Positions 20,660 through 54,707 of a stretch of 64,000 bases of DNA are shown piece by piece (positions within the stretch are counted from its first letter, which is position 1; each line of letters begins with the position of its first letter). This DNA is from Minisyncoccota bacterium. GTDB lineage: Bacteria; Patescibacteriota; Minisyncoccia; Phycocordibacterales; XYD1-FULL-46-19. The notes beneath the pieces were generated by a model. It searched no databases. It was not told where the DNA came from and saw nothing but the letters and a program-made list of their open reading frames with translations. Made by a program: the position numbers and the translations under genes. The DNA is taken from assembly GCA_041664425.1 (NCBI GenBank), contig JBAYKU010000001.1, positions 29,272-93,271 of the forward strand. The letters are read 5' to 3'.

Positions 20660-20835
20660 ACTACAGCTTAAACATTTTAAAACCACGAAAAAGCCCCCAG
20701 CGGGGCTTTTTCTCTGCTTCGTGTAGGCTCTTCGCCCTCGTTCCTCGCCCAGCTCGGAACAAAAATACTTAAGGGCGAAGACCGGCAGCCTACCACTACG
20801 CAAGGGTTTAAAAATGTTTAAGCTTCCGTTCGCTC
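20660..20835. repeat. Composite repeat element after fusA, bounded by inverted repeats and enclosing the fusA terminator
   Basis: Inverted copies of AGCTTAAACATTTTAAAACC (20665-20684 versus 20799-20820). Terminator at 20686-20713 and a GC-rich hairpin at 20723-20792. The right end is shared with 32798-32858. Confidence 0.5.
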
Positions 20836-20996
20836 AGGATAAGGTCTAAAAATTTTGCCAAATTTTTAAGTAGTTTACCCTTATTTTTAGGCGTTTTTGG
20901 CTGTTTGCTATTGACTTTTATACCTATTTATGCTAATATTGAAGATAGAGTTTTGTCAATTGGAGCCTCTTAGGAGGCAAGCGGAAGGATAGAAAA

Positions 20997-21554
20997 ATGA
21001 GTACAGCAATTAGTGTTTCAATCGCGGTCGTGTTGGCAGTTTTGTCGGTTGTCGTTTTTTTCTGGTTTAAGCTCCTTCCAGGGCTAGCTGTTGGTTTCCG
21101 GCAGTTTTTGATCAAAACGATAATTGCAGTAGCTGCCATGTTGGTGGTCCTTGCCATGAAACAAGGGGGAACTCCCGATTGGTATTGGCCGTTTATACAA
21201 CAAAGCCAGGTTTTCTATGTTATGACTGCCTGGCCAGAGACTTCTTCGGGTGACCATAATGCTACCGTAGTTTTTCAAAAGATGGCTGGTGGTCATCTAA
21301 AACCCAAGCAGATGATGGATGTCAGGCTTGAGGGAGATCTGCCCAAGCCTGGCCAACTGGTCATGTTTGGGAAGGGTAGTAAGCTGGTGATCGTGGGTAC
21401 TGTGGCCGAGTCTGTGACTCAGCCCGTGGCTCCGGTTGAACCAGTGGTAGCGCCAGCTTCGGATGCTGTTGTAGATCCGATTTCTACCCCCGCTGTAAAA
21501 CAGGAAAAATTCGCTCCCATCATCCCGTCGCGCAAGACGACGGCGAAGAAGTAG
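20997..21554 (+). CDS. Hypothetical membrane protein (two N-terminal TMs plus a Pro/Val-rich tail)
   Basis: 185-aa ORF. Promoter-like TTGACT-N17-TAATAT at 20904-20940. Confidence 0.5.
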   Translation: MSTAISVSIAVVLAVLSVVVFFWFKLLPGLAVGFRQFLIKTIIAVAAMLVVLAMKQGGTPDWYWPFIQQSQVFYVMTAWPETSSGDHNATVVFQKMAGGHLKPKQMMDVRLEGDLPKPGQLVMFGKGSKLVIVGTVAESVTQPVAPVEPVVAPASDAVVDPISTPAVKQEKFAPIIPSRKTTAKK

Positions 21555-21657
21555 CAAGTTTCCTCGCAGTTATCGTGCCTCGTGTCGCTCTAAGCGGTCA
21601 CGAGGCATTTGTTTTTGAAAAAAATTTCCTTGCTAGTCTTTTGGAGCGTGATAGAAT

Positions 21658-22989
21658 TTGGATAACTATATAAGTTTTAATTTTTTTAATATGAAAAAAG
21701 GTGATGCTTTTGATATGGCGAGAAAAATGAATACTGGCGATAGCCTCGATGTGACGGCTGAAGCGCCAGTGGCCGAAAAAAATAACGAGCAGGCTCTAGA
21801 TGAGTTGATGGATACTCCCGGCTTTGCTGAATTTTTAGCCAAACATCCTGAGGCTGGAGAATTGTCTGAGGCTGAAAACTTAGATCGAGTAGGCAATCTT
21901 CATGAAGCTTTTGGTAAGGTCAAGGAGACCAATAAGGAGTTGAATAGTTTTTTTAAGGACCAAGCCAAGGATTTAGGTTTAGAACTGTCAGAAGACGAGC
22001 TAAAGTTTGTTGGCGAACATATTGAAAATCTGGCAATAAACAATCCGGAAGAAATGGCGGGTTTAACAGAGACAATTAAAACCTACCGCGAAACCCCAGC
22101 CAAGATCAAAGCGCAAACGGCTGAATTGTCTAAGCACATGGAAACTTTTAATAATTATGGAGACCTGGTAGTAGAGAAGGCTAAACTAGAAGGATACGCC
22201 AATCTAACAAAGTTTGAAAAGGGTAAGGTCATGGGTTGGATTGGGGCCGTGGAACTTTTCTTTGCTGACAATAATACGGTTAGAGGCACTGTTCCCAATA
22301 AAGATGACAAGATGGCCGCTTTTGTTCATCGGGCGGCTCTCAATAAAGAGACTATTAATGAAATTCGCGACAAATACGGTTTGAAGCCAGAACAAATCAA
22401 AGAAAGGATTGAAAAGATAGAAGCTGATATTGAGCAAGCTCGGGGAGCAATGGGAAAGATGGATCAGTTACAGGAAGGGCTGACATCAGCCAAAGGAAAA
22501 ATGATGGCCGAGAACGTTTTACCCCTAGGACAAGTCAGAGAATTGCTCCAACAGAAATTATCAGAAAAAATGGCGGGGGCGGCTTTGAAAGAAGGTTCGC
22601 CTGATGACCGTTTGAAGGAATTGTCCAAGGTCCAAGAATATTTTGATCAAATGGCCAACTCAGATCTCGATCTATCTGCCGGTTTTGATAGTGGTGATTT
22701 TCAAAAAAGAGTAGATGATCTTATGGAACTTCAAGTGACCGATGGCATCTCTAAAGCTTTGGAATCAGCCAAGACTGATACTCTAACCAATTTTGAAAAA
22801 GGTTTTAAAAAATATCTTGATGGTTTGGAAAAATTAGGTACCAAGGACAAGGAGGAGGCCCAAAGATTTGTGGTTGAACAGATGTTTGAAAAAATCGGCG
22901 AATTGAATAAGTCTACTGAAAAATCAGACAAAGCTAAAGCGATCTTGCTTCGTCGGGTGGTCGCAAAGATACAAGCTAATAAAATTTAA
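21658..22989 (+). CDS. Hypothetical acidic alpha-helical protein (about 440 aa)
   Basis: Long ORF with no motif recognised. Possible alternative start at 21691. Promoter-like TTGCTA-N16-TAGAAT upstream. Confidence 0.5.
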   Translation: MDNYISFNFFNMKKGDAFDMARKMNTGDSLDVTAEAPVAEKNNEQALDELMDTPGFAEFLAKHPEAGELSEAENLDRVGNLHEAFGKVKETNKELNSFFKDQAKDLGLELSEDELKFVGEHIENLAINNPEEMAGLTETIKTYRETPAKIKAQTAELSKHMETFNNYGDLVVEKAKLEGYANLTKFEKGKVMGWIGAVELFFADNNTVRGTVPNKDDKMAAFVHRAALNKETINEIRDKYGLKPEQIKERIEKIEADIEQARGAMGKMDQLQEGLTSAKGKMMAENVLPLGQVRELLQQKLSEKMAGAALKEGSPDDRLKELSKVQEYFDQMANSDLDLSAGFDSGDFQKRVDDLMELQVTDGISKALESAKTDTLTNFEKGFKKYLDGLEKLGTKDKEEAQRFVVEQMFEKIGELNKSTEKSDKAKAILLRRVVAKIQANKI

Positions 22990-22994
22990 ATTTT

Positions 22995-23297
22995 ATGGAT
23001 ATCCAAACAGATTTAAGCCAGTTGGGAGATTTATTAGCGGCTGGTAAAAAAGATGAAGCCACCGCGCTGATCGATGCCTATATCAATCAAGATTTAAGTG
23101 ATGAGGAAAAAGGGACCGCTTATGTCGCTTGGGCCAAGGCTTATATGGATGCTTCTAATACTATTGACCAAAGTTACAGTGAGGCTTTGAAAGGCTGGCT
23201 GGAAACCCTGCGAGAGATTGATAAAGAGAGTGACGAGACAGTCAAAGAAGCTAAAGTAGCTTCACTTAAAAACGAAATTAAAAATTTTGGGGCCTAG
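22995..23297 (+). CDS. Hypothetical small acidic helical protein
   Basis: 100-aa ORF 5 nt downstream of the previous gene. Confidence 0.4.
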   Translation: MDIQTDLSQLGDLLAAGKKDEATALIDAYINQDLSDEEKGTAYVAWAKAYMDASNTIDQSYSEALKGWLETLREIDKESDETVKEAKVASLKNEIKNFGA

Positions 23298-23359
23298 AGT
23301 TTTCTAGTTGTGCACAGATTTCCTCGTTTCTGATAGTGTGTTGGTCTATAATTAAATTA

Positions 23360-23893
23360 ATGAAAAAATCTAATATCTTTGGGACTCGCCCGGTAGTGAA
23401 GTCTCGAAGAGCTTCTACTACCGGGTTTACTCTTATCGAGCTTTTAGTCGTGGTGGCGATCATCGGTCTTTTATTGGGGATTACTACTGACTATCTATCT
23501 AATGCTAGAAGTAAGGGCTCCGGAGCAGGGGTGAAGCAAAATTTAAATAGTCTGCGAACTGACTTGGCTTTGTGGCAGACCAACAATAATAATAGTAATT
23601 TACCTTGCAATATTGCCATTGCCGCCAACGGCACTAGTAGAGCTAATCAAATTTGGGCTCAAGCCAAGAGTCGGATCGGATCATCAGATTGGGGCTACTC
23701 GATCCACGGATGTGCCGCTGCTAATACCAACGTAACTGGCACCGGTTTTATTTTTGTGGCTAAATCTGGCACCGGCAAATATTGGTGTGTGGATAGTAAT
23801 AATGCCGGTAAGGAGATTACTACAATAGCTACTGCTGGTCTTACTGCTGGAGCATATACAAACGGCAGTACTCCATTCAAACTCTGCCCATAG
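23360..23893 (+). CDS. Type IV pilin (PilA-like) with a class III signal peptide
   Basis: ...STTG|FTLIELLVVVAIIGLL prepilin motif. C-terminal Cys pair (C...C) consistent with a D-region disulfide. Leader length uncertain. Confidence 0.75.
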   Translation: MKKSNIFGTRPVVKSRRASTTGFTLIELLVVVAIIGLLLGITTDYLSNARSKGSGAGVKQNLNSLRTDLALWQTNNNNSNLPCNIAIAANGTSRANQIWAQAKSRIGSSDWGYSIHGCAAANTNVTGTGFIFVAKSGTGKYWCVDSNNAGKEITTIATAGLTAGAYTNGSTPFKLCP

Positions 23894-24071
23894 CTAAAAT
23901 AAACACAAGGTCCAAGCAGCCCCCTAGGTTGACTTAATGTCTTTATTTGCTATTATTATCCCACGCAACGGCGTAGCTTTTTTGATGTTGACCGCAAGGT
24001 CTAGTCAACAAACAGGGGTTAAAAACCACTTTTTATTAAGTTAGTAGTTAATAATTAATAAGTAAAAACAT

Positions 24072-25265
<1,194 letters not shown>

Positions 25266-25276
25266 TTATTACATCT

Positions 25277-25642
25277 ATGACCGCAACGACCACTAAAAAA
25301 ACCAAAGCAAAGGTCAAAGCGACCGGAAGCGAGGAGACTTCCAAGCTTCGCATTCGGGTTTCGGCCTATGAAAACAAGATTCTTGACGCTAGTGTTAAGC
25401 AGATTGTTGATACGGCGTTGCGGTATGATGCAACGATCCTAGGTCCGATTCCATTGCCGACCGAGATCAAAAAATACACCGTCAATCGCTCAAGCTTTAT
25501 TGATAAAAATTCCCGTGAACAGTTCGAAATGCGTGTTCACAAGCGACTCGTGGATATCATGAGTCCGTCTCCGAAAATTATCGAGAGCCTGACCAATCTC
25601 AACTTGCCATCTGGCGTCAATATTGATGTCAAAATGATGTAA
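25277..25642 (+). CDS. rpsJ: 30S ribosomal protein S10 with an N-terminal extension of about 18 aa
   Basis: [13 protein letters not shown]... core. Confidence 0.85.
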
Positions 25643-25650
25643 GAAAACCC

Positions 25651-25690
25651 AAAACCCCGCCGGCCGAAAGGCTGGCGGGGTTTTGGTTTT
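25651..25690 (+). terminator. Rho-independent terminator immediately after rpsJ
   Basis: ccccgccggcc-gaaa-ggctggcgggg followed by ttttggtttt. Confidence 0.65.
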
Positions 25691-25774
25691 GTGCATAACT
25701 CTAGTTGTGATTATTTTTCTTTCTGTTATTACTTTAATTAGAAAATTGGTCTAACTGATAGTGGAGGAGGCAGA

Positions 25775-26029
25775 ATGACTATCTCAAGGCTATTGAGTTC
25801 CGATTTTGTTAGATGTCATTGCAAAGATGGAACAAGGCAATGTCTGTATTTGTCTCGATCTGCCGTCGTCGTAGATGGTGAACAAAATGAAGGCTGGTTT
25901 TGCAAAAACGGTAAGAATAAGGATGGTATTACTAGAGAAGGGGACATAACCGTTTGTGAGCTATTAGCCAGAGGCTTCAGTGGCGATTGTTACCAATTGA
26001 CAGTTACTGTCGGAAAAAAGAAGCTCTAA
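25775..26029 (+). CDS. Small Cys-rich (6 Cys) hypothetical protein inserted between rpsJ and rplC
   Basis: 84-aa ORF with strong SD GGAGGAGG 5 nt upstream. No signal peptide. Confidence 0.5.
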   Translation: MTISRLLSSDFVRCHCKDGTRQCLYLSRSAVVVDGEQNEGWFCKNGKNKDGITREGDITVCELLARGFSGDCYQLTVTVGKKKL

Positions 26030-26094
26030 GGACCCCTCACTTACATAGTCGAGGGGTCTGCGTGTTTATCTAGAGCCTTAGGAGTGGCTCAGAT

Positions 26095-26122
26095 TTGACT
26101 TTCTGCCCTTATCTGATAATAT
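26095..26122 (+). promoter_or_regulatory. Putative promoter TTGACT-N16-TAATAT for rplC and the downstream genes
   Basis: Hexamers with sigma70-like spacing. Confidence 0.4.
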
Positions 26123-26136
26123 GTTTCGAAGCTCGT

Positions 26137-26187
26137 AGGGGCTTTTTCAGCCCAAGGCTGATCGGCCTGGGGCCGAGTTTTTTTCTT
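26137..26187 (+). promoter_or_regulatory. Attenuator-like leader with alternative hairpins and a terminator-like stem plus U7 just upstream of rplC
   Basis: Three overlapping hairpins: gggct/agccc, cagcc/ggctg, and cggcc-tgg-ggccg followed by ttttttt. Confidence 0.35.
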
Positions 26188-26207
26188 AATATTGAAGCTA
26201 TATCTGT

Positions 26208-26843
26208 ATGAAGTTTATTTTAGGCACAAAACAACGAATGACTCAGGTTTTTGATGATAACGGCCGATCTCAGATTGGGACGGTAATTTCTGTTGCCCCA
26301 TCGATCGTCACTCAAATCAAAACTGCTGGTCAGGACAATACTAACTCGGTCCAGATCGGTTATGGCGAAAAACGAGCTAAAAATGCTGGTAAAGCCATGA
26401 TTGGCCATATTGCTCCTGCTCTCAAAGCTGCCGAAAAGGAAAATATTAGCTTCCAATTTTTGCGCGAATTCGCGACTGACAATACCGCTGACTACAAAGT
26501 CGGAGACGTTGTTGATTCCTCTATTTTCAATGAAGGTGAAGAAGTAACCGTGATCGGTACCAGCAAGGGTAAGGGTTTCCAGGGTGTCGTCAAACGCCAT
26601 GGTTTCCATGGAGGTCCACGTAGTCATGGTCAGAAGCACTCAGAGCGTGAGCCAGGTTCTATTGGTGTGGGTGGCGTTCAGCGCGTTTTCAAAGGTATGC
26701 GCATGGCTGGTCGCATGGGTAGTGATCGTGTCTCCACTAAATATGTCAAAATCATCAAAATCAACAAAGAGGCCAATGAAATTTTAATCCAAGGTGCTGT
26801 GCCTGGCCGTCCTGGTTCTTTGATCCAAATTATTGCTAAATAG
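26208..26843 (+). CDS. rplC: 50S ribosomal protein L3
   Basis: Conserved L3. Confidence 0.9.
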   Translation: MKFILGTKQRMTQVFDDNGRSQIGTVISVAPSIVTQIKTAGQDNTNSVQIGYGEKRAKNAGKAMIGHIAPALKAAEKENISFQFLREFATDNTADYKVGDVVDSSIFNEGEEVTVIGTSKGKGFQGVVKRHGFHGGPRSHGQKHSEREPGSIGVGGVQRVFKGMRMAGRMGSDRVSTKYVKIIKINKEANEILIQGAVPGRPGSLIQIIAK

Positions 26844-26848
26844 AAAAT

Positions 26849-27508: not shown

Positions 27509-27513
27509 ATATC

Positions 27514-27819: not shown

Positions 27820-27842
27820 AATTTTAAATAAATCGAATTATC

Positions 27843-28682
27843 ATGAAAAAGTATCAACCAACAACTCCATCACGTCGCGGCATGAGCGTAGTATCCTATC
27901 GCGGGGTTTTGACGACTGACACCCCTCACAAGTCTCTGACTAAGGGTGGCAAGCGTTCTGTTGGCCGTAATAATGCTGGCCGTATCACTGTTCGCCACAA
28001 AGGAGGTGGCCACAAGCGAGCTTATCGCGAGATTGATTTTACTTTCAATAAAATAAATATTCCGGCCAAGATTGAATCTCTCGAATACGATCCAAACCGC
28101 TCCGGTTTTATCGCCCTGGTTTGTTATGCTGATGGTGAGCGTCGCTATATTCTCGCTCCAGCTACTGTCAAAGTGGGGGATCAGATTGTTGCTTCTGAAA
28201 CCGCCGACATCAAGGCTGGCAATCGTTTACCTCTAGCTAAAATCCCTGTTGGTACTTTTGTTTACAATGTGGAAGTCAAACCAAAGGGTGGTGCTAAATT
28301 GGCTCGTTCAGCTGGTGCCTATGCCGAAGTTCTCGCTTCTGATGCCGGTTATACCAACCTAAAAATGCCTTCTTCTGAAGTCCGTAAGATCAGCGAAAAA
28401 GCTTGGGCTTCAATCGGTGCTGTCTCTAACGAGGAATATCGCTTGGCTAATTATGGTAAGGCTGGCCGTAGTCGTTGGATGGGTATTCGCCCGACTGTTC
28501 GCGGTAGCGCTATGAACCCTGTTGATCACCCATATGGTGGTGGTGAAGGCGCTCAGGGTCGTGGTACTCGTCGTCCAAAGACGGCTTGGGGTAAGGTCAC
28601 TGGTGGCCGCAAGACTCGCCGACCAAAGAAGTATTCAAATGTCTTGGTCGTTTCCCGTCGTAAAGTAGGCAAAAAACGCTAA
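27843..28682 (+). CDS. rplB: 50S ribosomal protein L2
   Basis: Conserved L2. Confidence 0.95.
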   Translation: MKKYQPTTPSRRGMSVVSYRGVLTTDTPHKSLTKGGKRSVGRNNAGRITVRHKGGGHKRAYREIDFTFNKINIPAKIESLEYDPNRSGFIALVCYADGERRYILAPATVKVGDQIVASETADIKAGNRLPLAKIPVGTFVYNVEVKPKGGAKLARSAGAYAEVLASDAGYTNLKMPSSEVRKISEKAWASIGAVSNEEYRLANYGKAGRSRWMGIRPTVRGSAMNPVDHPYGGGEGAQGRGTRRPKTAWGKVTGGRKTRRPKKYSNVLVVSRRKVGKKR

Positions 28683-28690
28683 AAAACACA

Positions 28691-28718
28691 AAAACCCCTA
28701 AAAAGGGGTTTTTGTTTT
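28691..28718 (+). terminator. Terminator after rplB, inside the S10 cluster
   Basis: aacccc-taaaaa-ggggtt followed by tttgtttt. Confidence 0.6.
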
Positions 28719-28791
28719 AAACGAACTGGTCGAGGGCCAACCTTTAAAAGGTGTGCCGAGTAAAAAGTTTGGTAAGCAAGAGGCTTAAAAG

Positions 28792-28819
28792 TTGACAATG
28801 AGCCCTAATTTGCTAGGAT
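28792..28819 (+). promoter_or_regulatory. Putative promoter TTGACA-N16-TAGGAT upstream of rpsS
   Basis: Same hexamer pair as 33404-33432. Followed by a roughly 100-nt structured leader. Confidence 0.4.
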
Positions 28820-28919
28820 ATTAACCAGGCTCATATTGGGCTAAACCCTGACGGAATACGACACTAAAGTGTCGAAAAATCCCAGAGATTTTTATTCCAC
28901 TGGGTAAATTTTTGATTTT

Positions 28920-29264
28920 ATGTCCCGCTCACTCAAAAAAGGTCCTTATTTGGACGAAAAACTGATGAAAAAGATCGCCGGTAAAAAACCCGGTGATGCT
29001 GGCGTGATTAAAACTTGGGCCCGCCGTAGTCAGATTAGCCCAGAAATGGTTGGCTTTACTTTTGGTGTTCATAACGGTAAAAGCCATCTCGAAGTCTTTG
29101 TGACCGAAGAAATGGTTGGTCATCGTTTGGGTGAATTCTCTCCAACCAAAAAATTCGTTCGCCATGGCGGTAAAATGCAGAAGGAACTCGAGATGAAGAA
29201 GAAGGAGGCCGAAATTTCAGCTGCCAAATCTGCTAAAGCTACCACCGATACCAAAAAGAAATAA
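28920..29264 (+). CDS. rpsS: 30S ribosomal protein S19 with a Lys/Glu-rich C-terminal extension
   Basis: Conserved S19 core. Confidence 0.9.
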
Positions 29265-29267
29265 ACT

Positions 29268-29654
29268 ATGAAAGCTGCTCTAACCAATTATCGCCAAGCT
29301 CCTCGCAAAGTCCGCCTCGCGGCTGATTTATTGCGCGGTAAAATGGTAACGGCTGCGGAAATGGAATTGAACGCTTTGTCTAAAAAAGCTTCCCCGATTC
29401 TGATGAAGCTTTTAGCTTCAGCGGTCGCCAATGCTGTCAACAACGATAAAGCTGACAAGTCCAAACTTTTTATTAAAGAAATTACCGTTGACAAGGGGAT
29501 GGTTTTAAAACGTTTCTTCCCTGGCGCTCATGGCAAAGCTTATCCGATCAATCGCAAGAACAGCCATGTTAAAATTGTTTTAGGAATTAAAGAGCCCGCT
29601 CCAGCTAAAGCTAAAAAAGTAGCTAAGAAAGTGGCTAAAAAAGTAAAGAACTAA
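29268..29654 (+). CDS. rplV: 50S ribosomal protein L22
   Basis: Conserved L22. Confidence 0.9.
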   Translation: MKAALTNYRQAPRKVRLAADLLRGKMVTAAEMELNALSKKASPILMKLLASAVANAVNNDKADKSKLFIKEITVDKGMVLKRFFPGAHGKAYPINRKNSHVKIVLGIKEPAPAKAKKVAKKVAKKVKN

Positions 29655-32021: not shown

Positions 32022-32579
32022 ATGTCCTTCGTTTCAATTCAAAAGAAAATAGAAAAAGCCCAAAAGACTCTGAAAGAGGAGTTGGGTGTTAAGAATGTCA
32101 TGGCTTTGCCCAAGATTACTAAAGTGGTAATCAATTCTGGTACTGGTAAGGCTCGTGATAAAAAACGCAACGAACTAGTGTCTGATCGCTTGGCCAAGAT
32201 TGTTGGTCAAAAGCCCTCCGCTCGCGGTTCCAAAAAATCCATCGCTAGTTTTAAACTGCGCGAGGGTGAAGTGATTGGTTATGCCGCCACTTTGCGTGGA
32301 AAGCGAATGAATGATTTTCTCGATCGCTTGCTTAATGTTGTTTTTCCTCGTATCCGCGACTTCAAAGGTTTTGACTCTAAATGCATTGATGAACTCGGCA
32401 ACCTAACCGTCGGCATCAAGGAACACTCAGTCTTCCCAGAAACCGCCGATGAAGATATCAAAGATGTTTTTGGTATGGCTATCACTATTGTGACTACTGC
32501 CAAAGATAAGAAATCAGCCAAGCTCTTCTTTGAAGCTATTGGTTTTCCGTTTAAGAAGGCGGTTGTGGGTAAAAAGTAA
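32022..32579 (+). CDS. rplE: 50S ribosomal protein L5
   Basis: Conserved L5. Confidence 0.9.
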   Translation: MSFVSIQKKIEKAQKTLKEELGVKNVMALPKITKVVINSGTGKARDKKRNELVSDRLAKIVGQKPSARGSKKSIASFKLREGEVIGYAATLRGKRMNDFLDRLLNVVFPRIRDFKGFDSKCIDELGNLTVGIKEHSVFPETADEDIKDVFGMAITIVTTAKDKKSAKLFFEAIGFPFKKAVVGKK

Positions 32580-32580
32580 G

Positions 32581-32777
32581 TCGCTCGGATTAAAGAAATT
32601 TTCAGCTGACGCTTCATCCGACCAAAATTATAGTCGTCTCACGACGAAAAATGAAAAACTCCTCACAAACGCCTGCCAATCAGCAGGCGTTTGCTCGTCA
32701 AACAGTTTCATTTTTCTGCTCGACTCCTTAATTTTGGTCGGCTTCTCGCGATGCTGAAAATTTCTTTAATCCTCGCT
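32581..32777. repeat. 197-bp symmetric palindromic element made of conserved inverted blocks
   Basis: Centre at about 32680 (perfect hairpin aaacgcctgc-caatca-gcaggcgttt). Matching arm blocks: ggattaaagaaattttcagc, ccgaccaaaatta and aaaaatgaaa mirrored around the centre, separated by non-matching spacers. Confidence 0.6.
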
Positions 32778-32797
32778 TTGGTTGAAATGCTAGGCGA

Positions 32798-32858
32798 TAC
32801 CACTACGCCTGCCTGCGCAGGCAGGCAAGGGTTTTAAAATGTTTAAGCTTTCGTTCTC
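32798..32858. repeat. Second copy of the TACCACTACGC...AAGGGTTTTAAAATGTTTAAGCTTTCGTTC repeat, carrying the inserted palindrome CCTGCCTGCGCAGGCAGG
   Basis: Matches 20790-20835. Palindrome at 32809-32826. Confidence 0.5.
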
Positions 32859-32948
32859 TCAAATTTTCTCCAAACAAAAACCCAGTAGGACAGCTTGTGC
32901 TGACTACTGGGTGAACTCTTCGCGACAGATTTCTGTCGGAGGAGGTGG

Positions 32949-33278
32949 CTACTCTTGTTTGATAAATTCGATTCCATACTTCTTTTCCGTGGGTGATCCT
33001 TGGAAAATAGTAATGGAGTCAGTTACTATTGATTCCCGTTTTGTCGGTGGGACCCTTTCAAGCTTCTTTGCGTTAAAATCATCAATTGCCGCTGCAATCG
33101 ATAACATAAACGCAACTATAATCACTATGACAGAGATCGCCAGCGCTATCTCTAGATGACCAGTTTTTTTTCGAAGCTCCTCTGTTTTTTCCCAGAGCTC
33201 CTTTTTCTTCTGTCGCTCCTCTGCTGTTTCTTTCCAGGGGTCTTCTTTTTCTGTTTTCGACATTCTTCTCCCTTTCAA
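32949..33278 (-). CDS. Small membrane protein (charged N-terminus, one TM) encoded antisense within the spc operon gap
   Basis: 109-aa ORF with SD AAGGGAGAAG upstream and a consensus promoter on the minus strand. Confidence 0.55.
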   Translation of the reverse strand: MKGRRMSKTEKEDPWKETAEERQKKKELWEKTEELRKKTGHLEIALAISVIVIIVAFMLSIAAAIDDFNAKKLERVPPTKRESIVTDSITIFQGSPTEKKYGIEFIKQE

Positions 33279-33301
33279 AAGCAGAACCTTAGCTCTGCCG
33301 G

Positions 33302-33353
33302 TTGACTATCCATTTCTACCTAATATTATACACCTAATCGTATAAAAAGTCAA
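33302..33353. promoter_or_regulatory. Back-to-back overlapping promoters: plus strand TTGACT-N16-TATTAT (33302-33329) and minus strand TTGACT-N17-TATAAT (33325-33353) sharing the -10 region
   Basis: Hexamers read directly on both strands. The minus promoter drives the ORF at 33278. Confidence 0.4.
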
Positions 33354-33403
33354 TAGATAACAATCTTCATGTAACACTTTTGTGTCTTTAGAGGCCTAAA
33401 TCG

Positions 33404-33432
33404 TTGACATTAAGGCCTCTTCTTGATAGGAT
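33404..33432 (+). promoter_or_regulatory. Putative promoter TTGACA-N17-TAGGAT for rpsZ and the downstream spc genes
   Basis: Same hexamers as the rpsS promoter. Followed by a structured leader (33456-33540) with hairpins cccggtggaata/tattccacgggg and atggcgc/gcgccat. Confidence 0.4.
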
Positions 33433-33641
33433 AGCACCAGCTCGTTTGAGCCCCGCCCGGTGGAATATGGCGCTTCTAGGCGCCATAAAATCGCTAGGTC
33501 AAACGATTTTATTCCACGGGGTAAAATATTTACTTGCCCGCCTAAATTTCCCTCGTGTAAATGAGGTAAACAGAGGGAGGACAAAATCATTTTATTAGTC
33601 AGGTATATCAATTCTACCGAGGGAAACTTTGGTGGGTAAAC

Positions 33642-33827
33642 ATGGCAAAAAAATCAGTCATCGCTCGTGCTCAAAAGACCCCGAAGTTTGCTTCGCGGGT
33701 TGTTCGTCGCTGTTTCCGCTGCGGACGTAAGCATGGCTATATGAGAGATTTTAATCTTTGCCGTATCTGTTTCCGTGAATTGGCCAATGATGGCAAAGTT
33801 CCGGGTATTCGAAAATCTTCATGGTAA
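33642..33827 (+). CDS. rpsZ: 30S ribosomal protein S14, type Z (zinc-binding)
   Basis: [23 protein letters not shown]. 61 aa. Confidence 0.85.
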
Positions 33828-41759: not shown

Positions 41760-41775
41760 TCTATTCTTTAAAATA

Positions 41776-41845
41776 ACCACCCCGCCCTCTCTATATGGTA
41801 ATAAAATAAAGTTTAGTTTAGTAGAAGAAGAGAGGGCGGGGTGGT
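41776..41845. terminator. Strong 16-bp stem hairpin (accaccccgccctctc / gagagggcggggtggt) with a 38-nt loop, followed by T-rich sequence
   Basis: Perfect complementarity of the two arms. Confidence 0.45.
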
Positions 41846-41883
41846 TTTGCTTTTATGGCAGTCTTATGCCATCATAGGAATAT

Positions 41884-47134: not shown

Positions 47135-47183
47135 AAGACCTATATAATATACAGGAAAAATTAGCTTTGTCCAGCCTGCACAC

Positions 47184-47300
47184 CAATAATGGCATAGTGC
47201 TTATTTTTATTAGGAGAACGCTCGGGCCTCTTTTTAACTAGATTGTTAAACTTAGAAATAAATCCAATTAGGCACAAAAATGATGCCACTATTGGTGTGC
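47184..47300 (-). promoter_or_regulatory. Possible L20-leader-like long-range pairing between the infC 3' end and the infC-rpmI spacer
   Basis: cctgcacaccaataatggc (47184-47202) is the reverse complement, with 1 mismatch, of gccactattggtgtgcagg (47281-47299). Confidence 0.3.
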
Positions 47301-47822: not shown

Positions 47823-47893
47823 GTTGCTACTATCTTAACAAAAATAGGCAAAAAGACAAGACAAAAGACAATATATGTTATTATATTGATGTT

Positions 47894-48334: not shown

Positions 48335-48354
48335 TGTTTTTAATACGGGGATGA

Positions 48355-48741
48355 TCGGCTTTGATAGGAAGTCTCATTCTTCTAGTGTATGCCGAGGATT
48401 CTAACTGTCTCGTAAAATCTGTTAGAAAAATGCAAATGCCAACAATACTGGCAAAAGCGTAGTAAGTCCTTACTTCGCTCCGGCTTTCGCTCTAGCTTAG
48501 CTAGACCCATTGTCGGTGTTTACTCCAACGTTTCTTCCGGCTGGTTGGCAGTAAACATTTTCGCAAGTCGGAATCGTGCGCCAGAGGTGCTCCGCTCTGG
48601 TGACCTAAAATAATTGGAGATCGATTAAAAAGTTTTCTGTTCGTCTTATAGCTTTTTGATTTAAACAAATTAGACGATCTACGCATATAGAGTCTATTAG
48701 AGTGCCTTTTTACACGGCGGTTCGATTCCGCCCATCTCCAC
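48355..48741 (+). ncRNA. ssrA: tmRNA (ssrA)
   Basis: 5' end GGGGATGATCGGCTTTGATAGGAAGTC and 3' end GGCGGTTCGATTCCGCCCATCTCCAC (tRNA-like T-arm and acceptor with a G3-U wobble). An internal tag ORF ends ...APAFALA-stop. CCA is not encoded. Confidence 0.8.
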
Positions 48742-48756
48742 AAAGACAAAAACTCA

Positions 48757-48785
48757 GCCCGCAACAGCGGGCGATTTTTGTTTGT
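48757..48785 (+). terminator. Terminator after tmRNA
   Basis: gcccgc-aaca-gcgggc followed by gatttttgtttg. Confidence 0.5.
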
Positions 48786-48848
48786 GGAGATGGTGCGAGC
48801 AAACTGCTTTGCTTGTTTATGTTTTAAATTATCTGTTATGATTAGCCG

Positions 48849-49589
48849 ATGATTGATCAACAAAAAGCTAAAGAAGCTTATGATTCTTTTATTGAGAAAG
48901 CCGAGAACGATGGCCGAATTATCGGGATTATTTTATCTGGCGGGAGGGGAAAGGATGCCCAATCAGAGAACTCAGATTATGACGTTATTCTAATCACGAC
49001 AGACGAGGGGTTTGATTCTGTTAAGCAAGATTATCCCAAGAGTGATTTTATAGACTCACTACCCCACGCCATTTCTGAGTTTAGAGACTATGCCAAATCT
49101 GGTACCCGTAGCCAGTACGATAAATATACTTTTACTCACAACAAAGCTGTCCTCGATAAAACTGGCGAAATCCAAAAATTAGTTGACGACAAGGGTGCTC
49201 TAGAACCTGATTTTATAAAAAAAGCCGTCCACGACGCTCTCGGTGGTTATCAAAATTCTCTACATCGAGCTTTAAAAAATACTAGAGACGGTAACGTGTT
49301 GGCCGGTCTTTTAGATGCCAGTGAAACCATTCCTAGGATTTTAAATTTTATCTTTGCTCTGGAGGGGAGAGTCAGACCTTTTAATAAATTCTTAGCCTGG
49401 GAATTGGATAATTATCCTTTGGAAAAATTACCGATGGAATCGAAAGATCTTTTGTTAAAAATAGAAACCATTGCCAAGACAGGTGATGTCGAGATCCAAA
49501 AAGAAATTTTGGCCATGATTCGCCAAATGGCGATTGCCAATGGCTTTAGCGAAGAAATCGCTGATTGGGATGGATATTATTTTGGATAA
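48849..49589 (+). CDS. Nucleotidyltransferase, ANT(6)/AadK-like (aminoglycoside 6-adenylyltransferase family)
   Basis: DGRIIGIILSGGRGKD...DYDVILIT resembles the ANT(6) N-terminal NTase motif. Family assignment rests on pattern memory only. Confidence 0.4.
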   Translation: MIDQQKAKEAYDSFIEKAENDGRIIGIILSGGRGKDAQSENSDYDVILITTDEGFDSVKQDYPKSDFIDSLPHAISEFRDYAKSGTRSQYDKYTFTHNKAVLDKTGEIQKLVDDKGALEPDFIKKAVHDALGGYQNSLHRALKNTRDGNVLAGLLDASETIPRILNFIFALEGRVRPFNKFLAWELDNYPLEKLPMESKDLLLKIETIAKTGDVEIQKEILAMIRQMAIANGFSEEIADWDGYYFG

Positions 49590-49649
49590 TTATATCGTTT
49601 CCATCTTTTTTATTTTGTGTTATAAATACCGATAGGAATTGAATATCCG

Positions 49650-50080
49650 ATGGGCGGAGAAAGGAAATACGTATGTTTGTACCAAAGAATGTAACTCTGC
49701 GAGAGGTCATCCGGGCCGTGGTGTCAGGATGTCTTCATCAAGAAGGAGGCTCCTTTCATAGGAGGGAGAAGATGTTCCATTTTCTTATCATGATCATACG
49801 GAAGGAGCTCCACTTGCCTCCCGGAGATCACCTTCATGATGTTGATTTGGAACAACGCCTTGGCTCCAAATCAACGTGTGTTTACGTCTGTATCACTTTG
49901 GCGTAAGATCTAGGTCGTCGGTTGCGAGCGAGGTCCTCTACGGGGGAACTCGCTCATTTGTTTTTATTGGAGTGCTCTGTTTAAAAACCCCGCCGGCTCC
50001 TGCCTGCGCAGGCAGGTTGCCGTGGAGACAACCCGCGTCAGCGGAGCGGTACCCTTCATGGGTATAGGACGCACAACCTG
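49650..50080. other. GC-rich non-coding island with hairpins and repeat-family motifs (CCTGCCTGCGCAGGCAGG at 49999-50016; ACCTGTTTTAGG at 50076-50087)
   Basis: Only short ORFs of low plausibility. Several stable hairpins, e.g. gttgatttgga...tccaaatcaac. Confidence 0.35.
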
Positions 50081-50082
50081 TT

Positions 50083-50592
50083 TTAGGAAAATAGGCGAAT
50101 AGTTTCGGTCACTTCTTCGGCGATACCATCAATACAAGGATAGTTTTTAACTTCACTTTCATCAACCCAGGCAAAATCAGTAAAAGCTCCTGGTTCAGGC
50201 ACAACTTCACCACTGCGATACCTCGCTGCAAATTTGACTAAGACGACGGGGATACCATCGGGCCGAATAAAAGCGTTGCTGTTTATATATTGCAACTTGC
50301 CTTCGATTTCAATGCCAGCTTCTTCATGCGCTTCACGTTTTAATAAATCTTCGACGGCATGTTCAAAATCCAAGACCTCGCCATTGATTCTGGTCGGTTT
50401 AGAGATATTGAGATCCTGCCATTCTAATTTTCCGCCCGGCACTGCCCAACGGCCAGGATGAACTTTTTCTCGTTCGTCGCGCTTGAGGATGAGACATTTC
50501 TGATCGCTATCACGATAGACGACAACATTGGCGACAAAGTAGAAAAGTTTGTCGGTTTTGGCTTGGTCTAAACTGATTTTAGAAGCGGTCAT
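50083..50592 (-). CDS. NUDIX hydrolase
   Basis: Nudix box LLKREAHEEAGIE. Confidence 0.75.
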   Translation of the reverse strand: MTASKISLDQAKTDKLFYFVANVVVYRDSDQKCLILKRDEREKVHPGRWAVPGGKLEWQDLNISKPTRINGEVLDFEHAVEDLLKREAHEEAGIEIEGKLQYINSNAFIRPDGIPVVLVKFAARYRSGEVVPEPGAFTDFAWVDESEVKNYPCIDGIAEEVTETIRLFS

Positions 50593-50595
50593 ATT

Positions 50596-52269
50596 TTACC
50601 ACTGACAGCTAGCTTTGATTTTAATAAGCGAGCCGATTTTTTGGCATAGATCAGTGAGATTTTTTGACTGAGCAAAAACATGATCCTCACCCTCGTAAGT
50701 CACATAGTCAAAAGGTTTGTGGCGAGTGGTTAAAATGCCAGCTAGCCACTTGGCCTGAATCGGAGGAATAGTTTTGTCGGCAGAATTTTGAACCAATAAA
50801 ATTTTCTGGGTGGTGACACGATCGAGCTTGGTCACAATGTTCGCTTGGAGAAAAAGGGGATCGTTGTCATCAGCCCGCAAACCCTCGAAGTAGGTGTTAA
50901 AAATAGAGTTTTGATAATATTCGAGTAGCTTGGTCCAATCAGTCACGCCGTTGATTGAAGCAATGCCGGCGTAGTTACTGGGTTTTTCGGCCAGAGTTCG
51001 TAGAGCGAGATAGCCACCGTAGCTGTTGCCGACCAGATAGATAGCGCTAGGTTTATAGAGAGTTTTTAATTCGGCAGTGACCGCTAAAATATCAGTGACA
51101 TCTTTTTTGCCGACTTGGCCGACGATACTATCGGCGAATTTACGACCATAGCCATAACTACCGACATAGTCGACTTTGGCCACGATCGCGCCACCTTCGG
51201 CCATTTGATCTAGCAGCCAATCATAGACGGCGTAGCTTTGATATGAGTGGTAGGTGCTAGCTGGAGCGATTTGGCGATAGGGTCCACCGTGGAGCCAGAT
51301 GATGAGTGGTTTACCAGGATTTTTATTGGTTCGGACAATAGTCGCTTCTCGACCGGCTAGAGTCGTTTCTTTGCGAACGAGATTGGGGAAGGGGCTAGCA
51401 ATAGATAGGGTTTTAAAAGTTTGGATTGTCCCGTCGGTCGGATCGTAACGATTGACAGTCTTTCTATTTTTAGTGAGTTGAGTAAAAAGTAAATAATCGC
51501 CAGAACGATAAATTTTTTCACCGTAGGAAATATTGTCGGCAATTTTTTTCAGTTCACCGTTATCGAGACGGTATCGGTATAGGGTCCAAGTAGTGGCACT
51601 CTCACGGTTGGCATAAAAGTAGAGAGTATTTTTATCCCAGATTAAAAAGTCACCTACGGAATAATTGCGAGCAAAAAGTTTTTTACTAACCAGAGTCTTT
51701 CCGGCCTGAGGTAGGTCAGCTTTATAGAGAGTAGGATAGCCGCCGCGGTCATCAGCATAAATAAAAAACGATTCATCTGGGGAGAAAGAGAAAAGCCGAT
51801 TTTCTTCGGTTAAGAGGTCCCAATTTTTAGCTTGACCTTTGATTTCAGTCCGTTTGGGTGAAGTCGGATTTTTTAGATCAACAATTACATGGTGACGGTA
51901 TTGATCGTTGTTGACCTTGGTGGAAATATAGTAGACAAAATAACGATTAGTGGGTGAAAATTGCTGGCGGGAAGAATTCCGAATCTCTTTATAGGTATTT
52001 TTTAGATCAATGAGAAGAGAATTTTGTTCAGTTGATTCGGCTGGTATGAGATCTAGACTTTTAAGATCGGGGGTTTGGCTACCTAAGTTCTGACAGACCA
52101 AGTTAGAAGTTTGGCAGAGATAGTAATTTTTATTTTCTAAGGCCCCGCTTTGGATGACGAGCTTATCGCCAGTTAATTTATAAATCGAAGCATAATCTAA
52201 GCCGGCCGCCGAGGTAGTGACGGGTAGGGCAAAAAATAACAGCAAAAATACTTTAAAAGATGTTTTCAT
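50596..52269 (-). CDS. S9 family (prolyl oligopeptidase / dipeptidyl peptidase-like) serine peptidase, secreted
   Basis: Signal peptide, N-terminal beta-propeller-like region, GNSYGG nucleophile elbow. Confidence 0.7.
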   Translation of the reverse strand: MKTSFKVFLLLFFALPVTTSAAGLDYASIYKLTGDKLVIQSGALENKNYYLCQTSNLVCQNLGSQTPDLKSLDLIPAESTEQNSLLIDLKNTYKEIRNSSRQQFSPTNRYFVYYISTKVNNDQYRHHVIVDLKNPTSPKRTEIKGQAKNWDLLTEENRLFSFSPDESFFIYADDRGGYPTLYKADLPQAGKTLVSKKLFARNYSVGDFLIWDKNTLYFYANRESATTWTLYRYRLDNGELKKIADNISYGEKIYRSGDYLLFTQLTKNRKTVNRYDPTDGTIQTFKTLSIASPFPNLVRKETTLAGREATIVRTNKNPGKPLIIWLHGGPYRQIAPASTYHSYQSYAVYDWLLDQMAEGGAIVAKVDYVGSYGYGRKFADSIVGQVGKKDVTDILAVTAELKTLYKPSAIYLVGNSYGGYLALRTLAEKPSNYAGIASINGVTDWTKLLEYYQNSIFNTYFEGLRADDNDPLFLQANIVTKLDRVTTQKILLVQNSADKTIPPIQAKWLAGILTTRHKPFDYVTYEGEDHVFAQSKNLTDLCQKIGSLIKIKASCQW

Positions 52270-52543
52270 TATGTTAACCCTATTAAGTAAGATTTGACGG
52301 TTATTAATTTTTTTACACTGAATCTTTATTATAGATACATTTTCTACCTATTGCGAAGTTAGTCAAATCTAGACTTTAAATCTTATAAAAATAAAGATTA
52401 AAAGTCTTACTTAGATAGGGTAAATTCTAACATATTTTTTGCCGTTGTTATTTCAATCTGATAGTGGTTAAATAGAGACAGAAGCTCGATCGGGTGTCGA
52501 GTAAGATCTTCAAGGTCAGGCGGAGGTAACCGCAGGAGGTGCC

Positions 52544-53002
52544 ATGAGTACCGAATTGGCCGGATTTGAAGTTGTCGAGGTCGTTGAAAAACCGGACAAA
52601 GCCAAAGAGAGGAGGTATAAGCGTGATACCCAAGAGCTATTTTGGCTCTTGGAAAATTGGGAGAAGGTGGTAGTAACAGCTAAGCCAGGTGGCAAGGTTT
52701 GGTATCGAGAAATCCATCGGATTATCGATTTCAAGCAGTGCTTCCAAGAGCAGTGGGGGTTTGATGCTTTGATTTATGAGATCAGAGTGATCGAGAACCG
52801 TATCGCGATCAGAAAATTGGCGGAGCCACTGGAATTTAGGCCTAAACGGACAGAAGTAGAGGTCCTGTCTTCTGAGACAAAAAAAAGGCTGAGCCTAGAA
52901 GAAAAGCGTAAACGTTATCGCGCCAAGCGCCGAGTAGTCAAAGATCGGCTTAGGCAATTCTGTCATTACCGAGTTTGTGGACTAGCAGCTTGCCATTTCT
53001 GA
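52544..53002 (+). CDS. Hypothetical protein with a Lys/Arg-rich, Cys-containing C-terminus
   Basis: 152-aa ORF with a tandem SD GGAGGTAACCGCAGGAGGTGCC just before the ATG. Confidence 0.5.
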   Translation: MSTELAGFEVVEVVEKPDKAKERRYKRDTQELFWLLENWEKVVVTAKPGGKVWYREIHRIIDFKQCFQEQWGFDALIYEIRVIENRIAIRKLAEPLEFRPKRTEVEVLSSETKKRLSLEEKRKRYRAKRRVVKDRLRQFCHYRVCGLAACHF

Positions 53003-53105
53003 GGAAGGCAGAACTGGTTCAAGTTTGAAGTTATATATCGGGGCCGAACGCATCAAGCGCATTCGGCCTCTTCTTTTTCTTTAATTTTTATGCTATTTTC
53101 TATTT

Positions 53106-54422
53106 ATGGAAAAAAACCAAGAAGCGATGGAAAAATTGGTCTCGTTGTGTAAAAGACGGGGTTTTATTTATCCCTCCTCGGAGATTTATGGCGGTCTGGC
53201 TGGAGTATGGGATTTTGGTCCCCTCGGTGTGGAGCTGAAAAACAATTTAAAAAATATTTGGTGGCAGATGTTCGTCCGCGACCGCGAGGATATGTTTGGA
53301 CTCGATGCGGATATTTTAATGAATGCTAAAGTCTGGGAAGCTTCTGGTCACGTGGCTGGTTTTGCTGATCCACTGACCGAATGTCAAAAATGTCACAAGC
53401 GTTTTCGAGCTGATCAATTAGAGGAAAATAAATGTCCAGATTGTGGTGGGGAATTGGGAGCGATTCGCCAGTTTAATATGATGTTTCGCACTCAGATCGG
53501 AGCGATGGAAGATTCTTCGGCAACGGTTTATCTACGTCCAGAAACTGCTCAGGGGATTTTTGCTAATTTTAAAAACGTCATCGATTCTTTTCATCCGAAA
53601 CTGCCGTTTGGTATTGGCCAGATTGGTAAAGCTTTTCGCAATGAGATCACGCCTCGCGATTTTATTTTCCGCGTCCGCGAATTCGAACAAATGGAAATTG
53701 AATATTTTATTCGAGCCGACGAATGGGAAAAACATTTTGCTGATTGGCAACAATCAGTTCACTCATATATAGAAGCGGTGGGGATTGCCAAAGGCAAGGT
53801 GAGCGAGCTCGAAGTCTCTGGTGATGATCTCGCTCATTATTCCAAGCGGACGATTGATTTTGAATTTGATTATCCTTTTGGCCGAAAGGAACTTTGCGGT
53901 TTGGCTTATCGGACCAACTTTGATTTAACTAAGCATGCCGAACATTCCGGCACTGAGCTTTTCTATTATGATGAAGAAACAAAAGAAAAAACCGTTCCTC
54001 ATGTTATCGAGCCATCTTTCGGAGTAGAAAGAATTGTTTTGGCGACTCTCTTATCCGCCTATCGGGAAGACGAGCTGGGTGGCGAGACTAGGGTCTATCT
54101 GGATTTCAATTTCGCTGTGGCGCCAGTCAAGGTGGCTGTCTTTCCGCTTTTGAAAAATAAACCAGAACTGGTAGCCAGGGCGCGCGAAATTTATGCCGAA
54201 CTGAAGAAAAAAATCTCGGGCAATGTGATGTTTGATGATAATGGTAATATTGGCAAACGCTATCGCCGACAGGATGAAATCGGGACGCCGTACTGTGTGA
54301 CGATTGATTTCCAAACCCTCGAAGATGAGATGGTGACGGTTCGCGATCGCAATAGTGGGGAACAGGAGCGAGTGAAAATTGCTGATTTGGCGGAGCGGAT
54401 TCTGACTGGGGATTTGGGGTAA
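53106..54422 (+). CDS. glyQS: Glycyl-tRNA synthetase (alpha2 dimeric class II)
   Basis: YGGLAGVWDFGPLG motif. 438 aa. Confidence 0.9.
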   Translation: MEKNQEAMEKLVSLCKRRGFIYPSSEIYGGLAGVWDFGPLGVELKNNLKNIWWQMFVRDREDMFGLDADILMNAKVWEASGHVAGFADPLTECQKCHKRFRADQLEENKCPDCGGELGAIRQFNMMFRTQIGAMEDSSATVYLRPETAQGIFANFKNVIDSFHPKLPFGIGQIGKAFRNEITPRDFIFRVREFEQMEIEYFIRADEWEKHFADWQQSVHSYIEAVGIAKGKVSELEVSGDDLAHYSKRTIDFEFDYPFGRKELCGLAYRTNFDLTKHAEHSGTELFYYDEETKEKTVPHVIEPSFGVERIVLATLLSAYREDELGGETRVYLDFNFAVAPVKVAVFPLLKNKPELVARAREIYAELKKKISGNVMFDDNGNIGKRYRRQDEIGTPYCVTIDFQTLEDEMVTVRDRNSGEQERVKIADLAERILTGDLG

Positions 54423-54432
54423 TTTATCTAAA

Positions 54433-54707
54433 CTGCAAAACTTTTTACTCGGCGCACCTGTTTTAGGGTACGGATTTCCCTGGCCCTATGGAATAAATTT
54501 GTTCAAAAACTTTCTTAATTTCAAAACCCAGACCCAAGCCCAACCATTTTGAAATTAAGAAAGTTTTTTTGACAAATTTCGCTTCGCTATTCCATAGGGT
54601 GAACTTAGAAAATCCTGTCCGCCAGCTGGCGGATCGGCCATGCCTGTACAGGCAGGTCGACAGCCTCACGACCCCCTAAAACAGGTGCGCCTTCGACAAG
54701 TTTGCAG
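54433..54707. mobile_element. MITE-like non-autonomous element with imperfect terminal inverted repeats of about 34 bp and an internal long hairpin
   Basis: TIRs ctgcaaaactttttactcggcgcacctgttttaggg / ccctaaaacaggtgcgccttcgacaagtttgcag. Inner hairpin 54484-54599. Shares CCTGTACAGGCAGG and ACCTGTTTTAGG motifs with other copies. Confidence 0.5.

Follow-up and report, generated by a model that had tools for sequence, protein, structure and literature searches.

A possible mosaic of small hairpin-forming elements at operon breaks in a Minisyncoccota genome

The 64-kb stretch of DNA analysed here (the window; positions 29,272 to 93,271 of contig JBAYKU010000001.1, Minisyncoccota bacterium assembly GCA_041664425.1) carries the str/S10/spc ribosomal gene cluster, the transfer-messenger RNA (tmRNA) gene and glyQS. 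Short sequences that recur in the gaps between these genes, and the hairpins that they form, are the subject of this report. Together with 10 kb upstream (locus L001) and 4.7 kb downstream (L026), about 79 kb of this genome were examined and compared with loci of relatives (numbered likewise with an L), which were fetched through homologues of the proteins L2, GlyRS, and SmpB. L2, the rplB product, is 100% identical to a protein from a metagenome-assembled genome of Candidatus Paceibacterota and 92% identical to that of Candidatus Vogelbacteria. The str/S10/spc cluster is split by terminators and new promoters in three places (20658-24072, 28682-28920, and 32579-33643). The genes inserted in it are lineage-specific: the fusA-tuf gap holds pilin-like and unknown open reading frames (ORFs), and the rplE-rpsN gap a small antisense gene for a membrane protein. 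The same gaps in relatives (L018-L032) hold Y1 transposases, PemK, AbiEii, and a peptidoglycan (PG)-binding protein.

The original prediction, made from the letters alone, described four sites in the window as copies of one composite family resembling miniature inverted-repeat transposable elements (MITEs) or repetitive extragenic palindromic (REP) sequences. The shared modules lie where it placed them, and their recurrence exceeds what chance would give. There are three copies of the 20-mer GGTTTWAAAATGTTTAAGCT, one on the minus strand (20665-20684) and two on the plus strand (20805-20824 and 32830-32849), where shuffles give none, and the 18-nt palindrome CCTGCCTGCGCAGGCAGG occurs exactly at 32808-32825 and 49999-50016, with a three-mismatch variant at 54639-54656 (again none expected). 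GCGCACCTGTTTTAGG forms both ends of the element at 54.4 kb (54452-54467 on the plus and 54675-54690 on the minus strand), and its 11-mer core CCTGTTTTAGG is also present at 50077-50087, giving three matches where 0.09 are expected; TACCACTACGC is found at 20791 and 32798. Every site is intergenic and at an operon end, as had been claimed, and the folds and the recurrence bear out a set of dispersed, hairpin-forming, extragenic repeats. The single composite family does not survive: the modules instead belong to a full element (T1) with its remnant, a second full element (T2) with solo ends, a separate 18-nt palindrome, and a further element (T4) nested in T2. Three features had escaped notice, namely the solo T2 end at 28741-28770, the 186-nt hairpin at 32587-32772 (T3), and the closed hairpin structure of 20665-20824. 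The elements and their parts are as follows.

20657-20841, plus strand: T1, a closed three-helix element (outer stem P1, terminator hairpin, composite hairpin 2) that starts 1 nt past the fusA stop codon
20665-20684, plus strand: 5' arm of T1 P1, AGCTTAAACATTTTAAAACC, an inverted module A that pairs with 20805-20824
20687-20712, no strand assigned: T1 terminator hairpin, GAAAAAGCCCC CAGC GGGGCTTTTTC, with an A-run on its 5' side and a T-run on its 3' side
20805-20824, plus strand: 3' arm of T1 P1, the module A core, closing a 20-bp outer stem
28741-28770, minus strand: solo T2 end downstream of the rplB terminator; 26 of 30 nt match the T2 left terminal repeat (BLAST, 92% over 25 nt)
32587-32772, plus strand: T3, a 186-nt near-symmetric hairpin after rplE with perfect 20-nt outer arms
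32798-32861, plus strand: 3' remnant of T1 (TACCACTACGC, then the P1 3' arm, then TTCGTTCTCTC), 92% identical to 20800-20836
32808-32825, no strand assigned: perfect 18-nt palindrome CCTGCCTGCGCAGGCAGG inside the T1 remnant, flanked by ACG and CAAGG and lacking a target duplication
49999-50016, no strand assigned: second exact copy of the 18-nt palindrome, in a convergent gap upstream of the 3' end of a NUDIX gene
50071-50088, plus strand: T2-end-like motif CGCACAACCTGTTTTAGG overlapping the NUDIX gene stop codon, a weak and possible solo end
54429-54711, plus strand: T2, a 283-nt composite hairpin after glyQS with terminal inverted repeats at 54429-54468 and 54674-54711
54461-54477 and 54661-54681: T2 conserved boxes, TTTTAGGGTACGGATTT and CAGCCTCACGACCCCCTAAAA, respectively
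54484-54599, plus strand: T4, a 116-nt hairpin at the tip of T2 hairpin A
54618-54633, no strand assigned: small palindrome TCCGCCAGCTGGCGGA in T2; in L018-L020 the hairpin that follows rpsJ is formed by the same 17-mer
54639-54656, no strand assigned: variant CATGCCTGTACAGGCAGG of the 18-nt palindrome, in T2

T2 folds as a 291-nt hairpin of -126 kcal/mol (z = -12.5), and its predicted architecture stands, with imperfect terminal inverted repeats measured at about 38 nt, in which two blocks (11 and 18 nt) match perfectly, and with 12 + 33 bp in the internal stem. The two ends match each other at about 80% of positions within the copy and match the solo end and the L022 homologue at about 81%. 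That homologue, about 130 nt long at the end of rplE, retains both conserved boxes and the imperfect ends, and a third T2 locus lies 3' of another gene in L066; the element thus occupies three loci, counting that after glyQS in the window. The glyQS site is empty in L034/L035 and in L037. In the closest GlyRS relatives (91% and 85% identity), a plain terminator separates glyQS from ftsH, and neither T2 nor an equivalent of the 153-aa ORF is present. A TA dinucleotide is readable at both T2 junctions, an ambiguous reading where the relatives' empty sites do not align.

T4 consists of 12-nt outer arms (CCCTATGGAATA), 33-nt inner arms, and a C/A-rich loop of 20 nt. Copies in L066, L065, and L063 are identical to it at 123 of 124 nt (99.2%) and 96 of 97 nt (99.0%). 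The longer match, in L066, lies at another locus and, as in the window, within a T2-type hairpin; the shorter belongs to a second locus, in the opposite orientation and between divergent genes. Both loci fall within 4.5 kb of that genome, one in each orientation. The genes of the same genome are far less similar to those of the window (DNA identity of 86.8% for smpB, 84.5% for rplB, 85.7% for fusA, and 78.6% for glyS), and because the T4 copies are 99% identical against 79-87% for genes, T4 must have been mobile or transferred recently. In the T2 of L022, the same hairpin A ends in a simple 7-nt loop, which represents an empty site; T4 was therefore inserted at a hairpin tip. An exact empty site was also sought for the second T4 copy, in a region that does not align.

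T1 folds at -73.5 kcal/mol (z = -6.95). Sequences with about 80% identity to its core follow fusA in L025 and rpsJ in L022. A covariance model, R1, built from four copies scores 185.7 bits on the window T1 and finds further single copies per genome in L019/L021 and L029/L030 (after rplE), which places T1 in five genomes, including this one, and at three positions (after fusA, rpsJ, or rplE). A search of 235 kb with R1 gave no further strong match, and all eight R1 matches share the strand of the ribosomal genes. The outer stem (11-20 bp) has an unrelated sequence in each genome and is paired nonetheless. The covariation test, over five distinct sequences, finds pairing in 94.3% of cells and compensatory change, on both sides, in 29 of 53 pairs. 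None of 500 shuffles reaches these values, and slid partners are at most 55% paired. The loops CCAGCG and GGAACAAAAAT are conserved; the former is kept, with the sequence of the terminator hairpin, in all five T1 copies. That hairpin (20687-20712) is the sole terminator-like feature between fusA and the next promoter, and has the G+C-rich stem-loop, T-run, and transcription-unit end by which intrinsic terminators are recognised from sequence. The terminator call itself is on the minus strand, with CTTTTTCTCTG following the hairpin on the plus strand.

Evidence as to which strand of T1 matters is mixed. G-U pairs exceed A-C pairs 13 to 5 on the plus (sense) strand, which favours a sense transcript, whereas fold stability favours the minus strand, as it does for all seven elements that were folded on both strands. 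At 20959-20930 the minus strand has a sigma-70-like promoter, from which an antisense RNA could extend as far as the T1 terminator. Such an antisense small RNA is possible through this promoter-like site, but it would leave the outer stem unexplained and the strand evidence in conflict. Other candidate identities were set aside. A retron-like reading was dropped after a Pfam search of ten neighbouring ORFs found no reverse transcriptase or transposase; coding potential of T1 and T3 was rejected, as their short ORFs are not kept between genomes; and a hammerhead-like or tRNA-fragment reading of T1 or module A lacks core motifs and any support from Rfam or ARAGORN.

The copy at 32798 comprises the final 45 nt of T1 and 12 nt of flank, 92% identical to the copy after fusA. 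It lies where L029, in the order rplE-T3-T1, has a full T1, and L018/L019 have no such stretch beyond the common flank GGTTGAAATGCTA; for these reasons it is read as a truncated T1. Since its outer arm matches that of the fusA copy and not the arms of other genomes, the two copies were duplicated within this lineage. When the two T1 ends are compared directly (20791-20810 with 32798-32835), the 18-nt palindrome is their sole other difference. T1 is probably a largely vertical, structured element; its position has changed all the same (after fusA, rpsJ, or rplE), and the genome studied here keeps a remnant of it. T3 looks, from its sequence conservation, to be inherited vertically: L029 and L032 have orthologues in the same place, with 83% and 79% identity, respectively, unpaired parts included. 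T3 is missing in L019, and a second, partial copy flanks an inserted AbiEii block in L032. Its tip hairpin is predicted from sequence to be a strong terminator in both of these orthologues and a weaker one in the window. Both T1 and T3 thus appear to supply a terminator-like hairpin that would end the upstream operon. The mobility claimed in the original prediction is supported for at least T2 and T4, whose presence and absence and occurrence at several loci are as expected of mobile DNA; T3 and probably T1 are mainly inherited by descent.

The gaps of relatives add a possible agent. In these genomes, Y1_Tnp genes lie between fusA and tuf and after rplB, and the sole NCBIfam match of their products is the REP-associated tyrosine transposase (RAYT), at 41-62 bits against a cut-off of 80. 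Each gene is bordered by its own hairpins; in L022 the hairpin found on both sides of the Y1 gene doubles as the terminator of fusA, where a further outer repeat, perfect over 14 nt, is present. L019, the Vogelbacteria relative, has a private two-copy hairpin family (AAACGCRGATTYACCCRCC...GGTGGGTAAACGCAGA) at 3722-3790 and 8010-8070, after fusA and rpsJ, so each genome of the clade has its own hairpin repeats at these gaps; the L019 terminator CCCCTCCAGCGAGGGG likewise recurs past fusA and rplE. TCGCT lies within 25 nt past the outer stem of 9 of 11 elements (nominal P of about 1e-8, for a motif that was picked after seeing the data), often as CGCTTCGCT, with examples in the window at 20829-20835, 32773-32777, and 54580-54587. 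The motif is frequent ahead of the stem as well, and a similar 5-8 nt sequence, (G)CTTCGCT, is present on both sides of several T1 and T3 copies. TCGCT could be a core site, a cleavage site, or a processing signal.

We read the four sites as a mosaic of at least four distinct, small, non-coding, hairpin-forming extragenic elements at operon breaks, nested in or adjacent to one another and specific to a Vogelbacteria-like lineage of Paceibacterota within the candidate phyla radiation (CPR); to this reading as a whole we give a probability of about 0.5. The behaviour of T2, T4, and the 18-nt palindrome is that of mobile or copied DNA, with different loci, empty sites, nesting, and solo ends or remnants. 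In the proposed mechanism, the elements would serve as portable terminator or insulator hairpins at operon ends and would spread as single-stranded hairpin DNA in the manner of REPs and of REPINs, the hairpins formed by REP doublets. Mobilisation would be by RAYT-like Y1 (HUH) transposases of the kind present in these gaps of sister genomes, and new copies would favour the tips of existing hairpins. The variable and perfectly paired outer arms would be maintained or extended by selection for the hairpin, possibly with replication template switching.

Among known systems, the element set appears by comparison to behave most like REP/REPIN repeats, and in this sense the REP-like half of the earlier label fits more closely than the MITE half, for which the classical criteria fail or cannot be shown. 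REPINs can form hairpins in single-stranded DNA or mRNA, show compensatory change between their arms, decay to singlets, and are associated with a Y1 transposase (PMC3116915). Likewise, the elements here are extragenic hairpins with compensatory arms, a remnant (32798), and a solo end (28741), located after genes, and the Y1 genes of sister genomes are flanked by their own hairpins, one of which is reused as a terminator. They differ in that the 79 kb of this genome contain no RAYT. No short REP is common to both arms of T1, T2, T3, or T4 and also present as a singlet; the 18-nt palindrome does occur alone. Enterobacterial REPs carry a GTAG head, which is absent here; TCGCT is found past the outer stem of 9 of 11 elements instead.

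Bacterial MITEs such as the Correia elements of Neisseria and RUP of Streptococcus pneumoniae share with these elements a length of 100-300 nt, terminal inverted repeats (as in T2), strong hairpins, an intergenic location, possible terminator effects, and near-identical copies (as in T4). The differences are that neither a TA nor any other target duplication is demonstrable, that no cognate DDE transposase is present in the loci examined, and that the T1 arms are not conserved in sequence. The bacterial interspersed mosaic elements (BIMEs) of E. coli and the BOX elements of pneumococci similarly consist of short modules in varying order and orientation at gene ends, and it is as a mosaic of combined modules that the four sites came to look like one composite family. 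Here, however, the mosaic arises at least partly from nesting (T4 in T2, and the palindrome in the T1 remnant), and the modules are unrelated in sequence to those of BIMEs or BOX. Palindrome-associated transposable elements (PATEs), derived from IS200/IS605 insertion sequences, are non-autonomous, depend on hairpins, and make no target duplication, and the clade studied here has Y1 HUH enzymes; the (G)CTTCGCT on both sides of T1 and T3 copies is as if the left target resembled the right cleavage site. Elements of the IS200/IS605 type insert 3' of a fixed tetra- or pentanucleotide, have no terminal inverted repeats, and carry subterminal hairpins without mutual complementarity. The window elements do have complementary ends and close on themselves, and no parent element bearing TnpA/TnpB is seen.

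Several observations weigh against the mosaic of REP-like elements as we have described it. Each family has only 1-3 copies within the 79 kb, compared with hundreds per genome in the REPIN literature, and no element is an obvious inverted doublet of one short REP. No Y1 or other transposase is found in the window, L001, or L026 (by tblastn with the relatives' Y1 proteins for the window and L001, and by Pfam for ten neighbouring ORFs), and the window modules show no sequence relationship to the hairpins bordering the relatives' Y1 genes. The cognate transposase was sought in the loci of relatives (about 200 kb) as well as in the window and its flanks; these yielded no transposase with matching ends, and the only candidates were Y1/RAYT-like genes with their own, different hairpins. 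A scan of metagenome and genome collections, among which the source contig is not included, with the T1 arm returned chance matches only, with dissimilar flanks. The conservation, covariation, and fixed orientation of T1 and T3 are typical of a functional RNA or cis-element, not of a selfish repeat, and the terminator or insulator activity of the elements is predicted from sequence. Further searches were also negative: viral contigs contain no match to the motifs of T1, T2, T3, or T4, and BLAST of T2 against phages and of T1 against plasmids found none. The 18-nt palindrome matches 25 viral contigs, mostly of high-GC phages with unrelated flanks, and these are uninformative on CPR elements.

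An alternative is that T1 and T3, and perhaps T2, are structured cis-acting RNAs, that is, terminator, insulator, or other structures of the 3' untranslated region, or small RNAs under purifying selection, whose copies arose by ordinary recombination or duplication; we consider this account somewhat unlikely. Much of the T1 and T3 evidence agrees with it, including the compensatory pairs of T1 (29 of 53), its conserved loops and its orientation with the upstream gene in eight of eight matches, the excess of G-U over A-C pairs on the sense strand, the 79-83% identity of T3 at an orthologous site in three genomes with unpaired segments included, the low copy number, and the minus-strand promoter, from which a possible antisense RNA would run to the T1 terminator. 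The same account does not extend to T4, which is found in both orientations, between divergent promoters too, and at 99% identity across species, nor to T2 at three unrelated loci, and nesting, solo ends, and a truncated T1 are repeat-like traits. In T1, moreover, P1 must enclose a terminator at which the sense transcript should stop, short of the 3' arm; in seven of seven elements the minus strand folds more stably; and no Rfam family matches, since gathering-score matches in the window are confined to the tmRNA and two tRNAs and none falls over the elements even at E ≤ 5. Quite improbable, in our view, is that the elements are classical MITEs, deletion derivatives of DDE insertion sequences with conserved terminal inverted repeats that move by cut-and-paste with target-site duplication. 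T2 does end in inverted repeats, imperfect over about 38 nt but perfect in two blocks (11 and 18 nt), with a TA readable at both junctions, T4 is a compact hairpin of about 116 nt with 99% identity across loci and genomes, and solo ends are present. Target duplication is nevertheless not demonstrable where the relatives' empty sites fail to align at the junctions, and the palindrome inserted without one. The terminal arms of T1 differ entirely between genomes and still pair, the opposite of what a transposase-binding repeat would do, and the window and all relative loci contain no DDE transposase, the only transposase genes being those of Y1 type.

Least probable of the accounts considered, and very unlikely, is that no dedicated mobility exists at all, the arms having arisen by replication template switching (fold-back copying) at old terminator hairpins and the modules being segmental duplications. 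Template switching is documented to make perfect stems and to mimic compensatory change (PMC8794818), and the stems here are similarly perfect and change in blocks. An inverted copy of a constrained flank is also at hand: the tmRNA 3' end CCATCTCCACAAA (48732-48744) has a perfect inverted copy at 48781-48793, past the tmRNA terminator, which measures 13 nt here and 6 nt (CTCCAC/GTGGAG) in the closest relatives, so that outer arms can arise from local flanks as template switching would have it (PMC8794818). The near-perfect T1 outer arms that are unrelated between genomes, the extra perfect 14-nt outer repeat of the L022 fusA terminator, and the onion of nested inverted repeats formed by T2 and T4 point the same way. 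The process is local, however, and does not disperse copies. It cannot put a 99%-identical T4 at unlinked loci in different species and leaves unexplained the 45-nt T1 end common to 20791-20836 and 32798-32861; it would account for the evolution of the arms, not for dispersal. The mosaic of partly mobile, REP-like elements is therefore preferred. A bolder form of it, which we hold to be unlikely, would make T1, T2, T3, and T4 the products of an undescribed, single-strand, hairpin-directed transposition in the CPR, driven by divergent RAYT-like Y1 enzymes. Such a process would insert terminator hairpins at hairpin tips or beside the TCGCT core, splitting the normally contiguous str/S10/spc operons into units that each have a terminator of their own and opening sites for accessory genes (pilins, toxins, AbiE, and RAYTs). 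On this view T1 would represent a new class of structured element, at once mobile DNA and functional terminator, in which the three-way core is conserved and the closing stem varies freely.

The families themselves are new, while the kind of repeat, REP- or MITE-like, is already known; a full-text search of one paper collection found no work on REP, RAYT, or MITE-type repeats in CPR/Patescibacteria. The genomes of the CPR are very small and streamlined, and the persistence of selfish or structural repeats in them is not expected. The elements would also supply terminators that split ribosomal-protein operons, they mark gaps into which accessory genes have been inserted in several relatives, and one of them, T4, is shared almost unchanged across species. 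If the link to Y1 transposases is true, they offer a tractable case, in an uncultured lineage, of operon architecture shaped by mobile hairpins, with T1 and T3 as new structured elements for RNA-family databases; if it is false, they are ordinary lineage-specific intergenic repeats.

Further features were observed in the window and its relatives. The window tmRNA lacks an encoded CCA end, which relatives have, and in an L025-type relative (L067, 2724-3089) a gene of the bAvd/23S_rRNA_IVP family directly follows smpB, at the position of the window's tmRNA. Some other dispersed similarities of the window are due to the reuse of a near-identical promoter module (CTATTGACTTTT...TATAAT-like), present three times (20908-20940, 33325-33356 on the minus strand, and 61499-61531). 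The motif TTTATTCCAC(T/G)GGGTAAA, preceded by a small hairpin, occurs at 28860-28915 and 33480-33530, downstream of strong promoters and ahead of rpsS and rpsN, and has a perfect 20-nt inverted copy at 826-845 on the minus strand; the sites may be leader structures of ribosomal operons. The promoter of rplC and its leader of about 100 nt (26090-26205 in the window, 8200-8320 in L019) are near-identical, far above the conservation of nearby spacers, which makes this a candidate regulatory leader.

A perfect 18-nt inverted repeat, AACCACCCCGCCCTCTCT, with an A/T-rich loop of 36 nt lies at 41775-41846, and its core CCACCCCGCCCTC also forms hairpin 2 of the L019 T1. A tRNA-Ile gene with a TAT anticodon is present at 57448-57522. 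At the far end of the window and beyond (61627-64000, continuing into L026 1-6939, reversed), a large serine recombinase (Resolvase, Recombinase, and Zn_ribbon domains) adjoins tRNA-Ser(GCT) and is followed by an OLD-family ATPase/TOPRIM protein and then by a UvrD-type helicase. The latter two genes look like a Gabija-like defence pair on a tRNA-integrated island.

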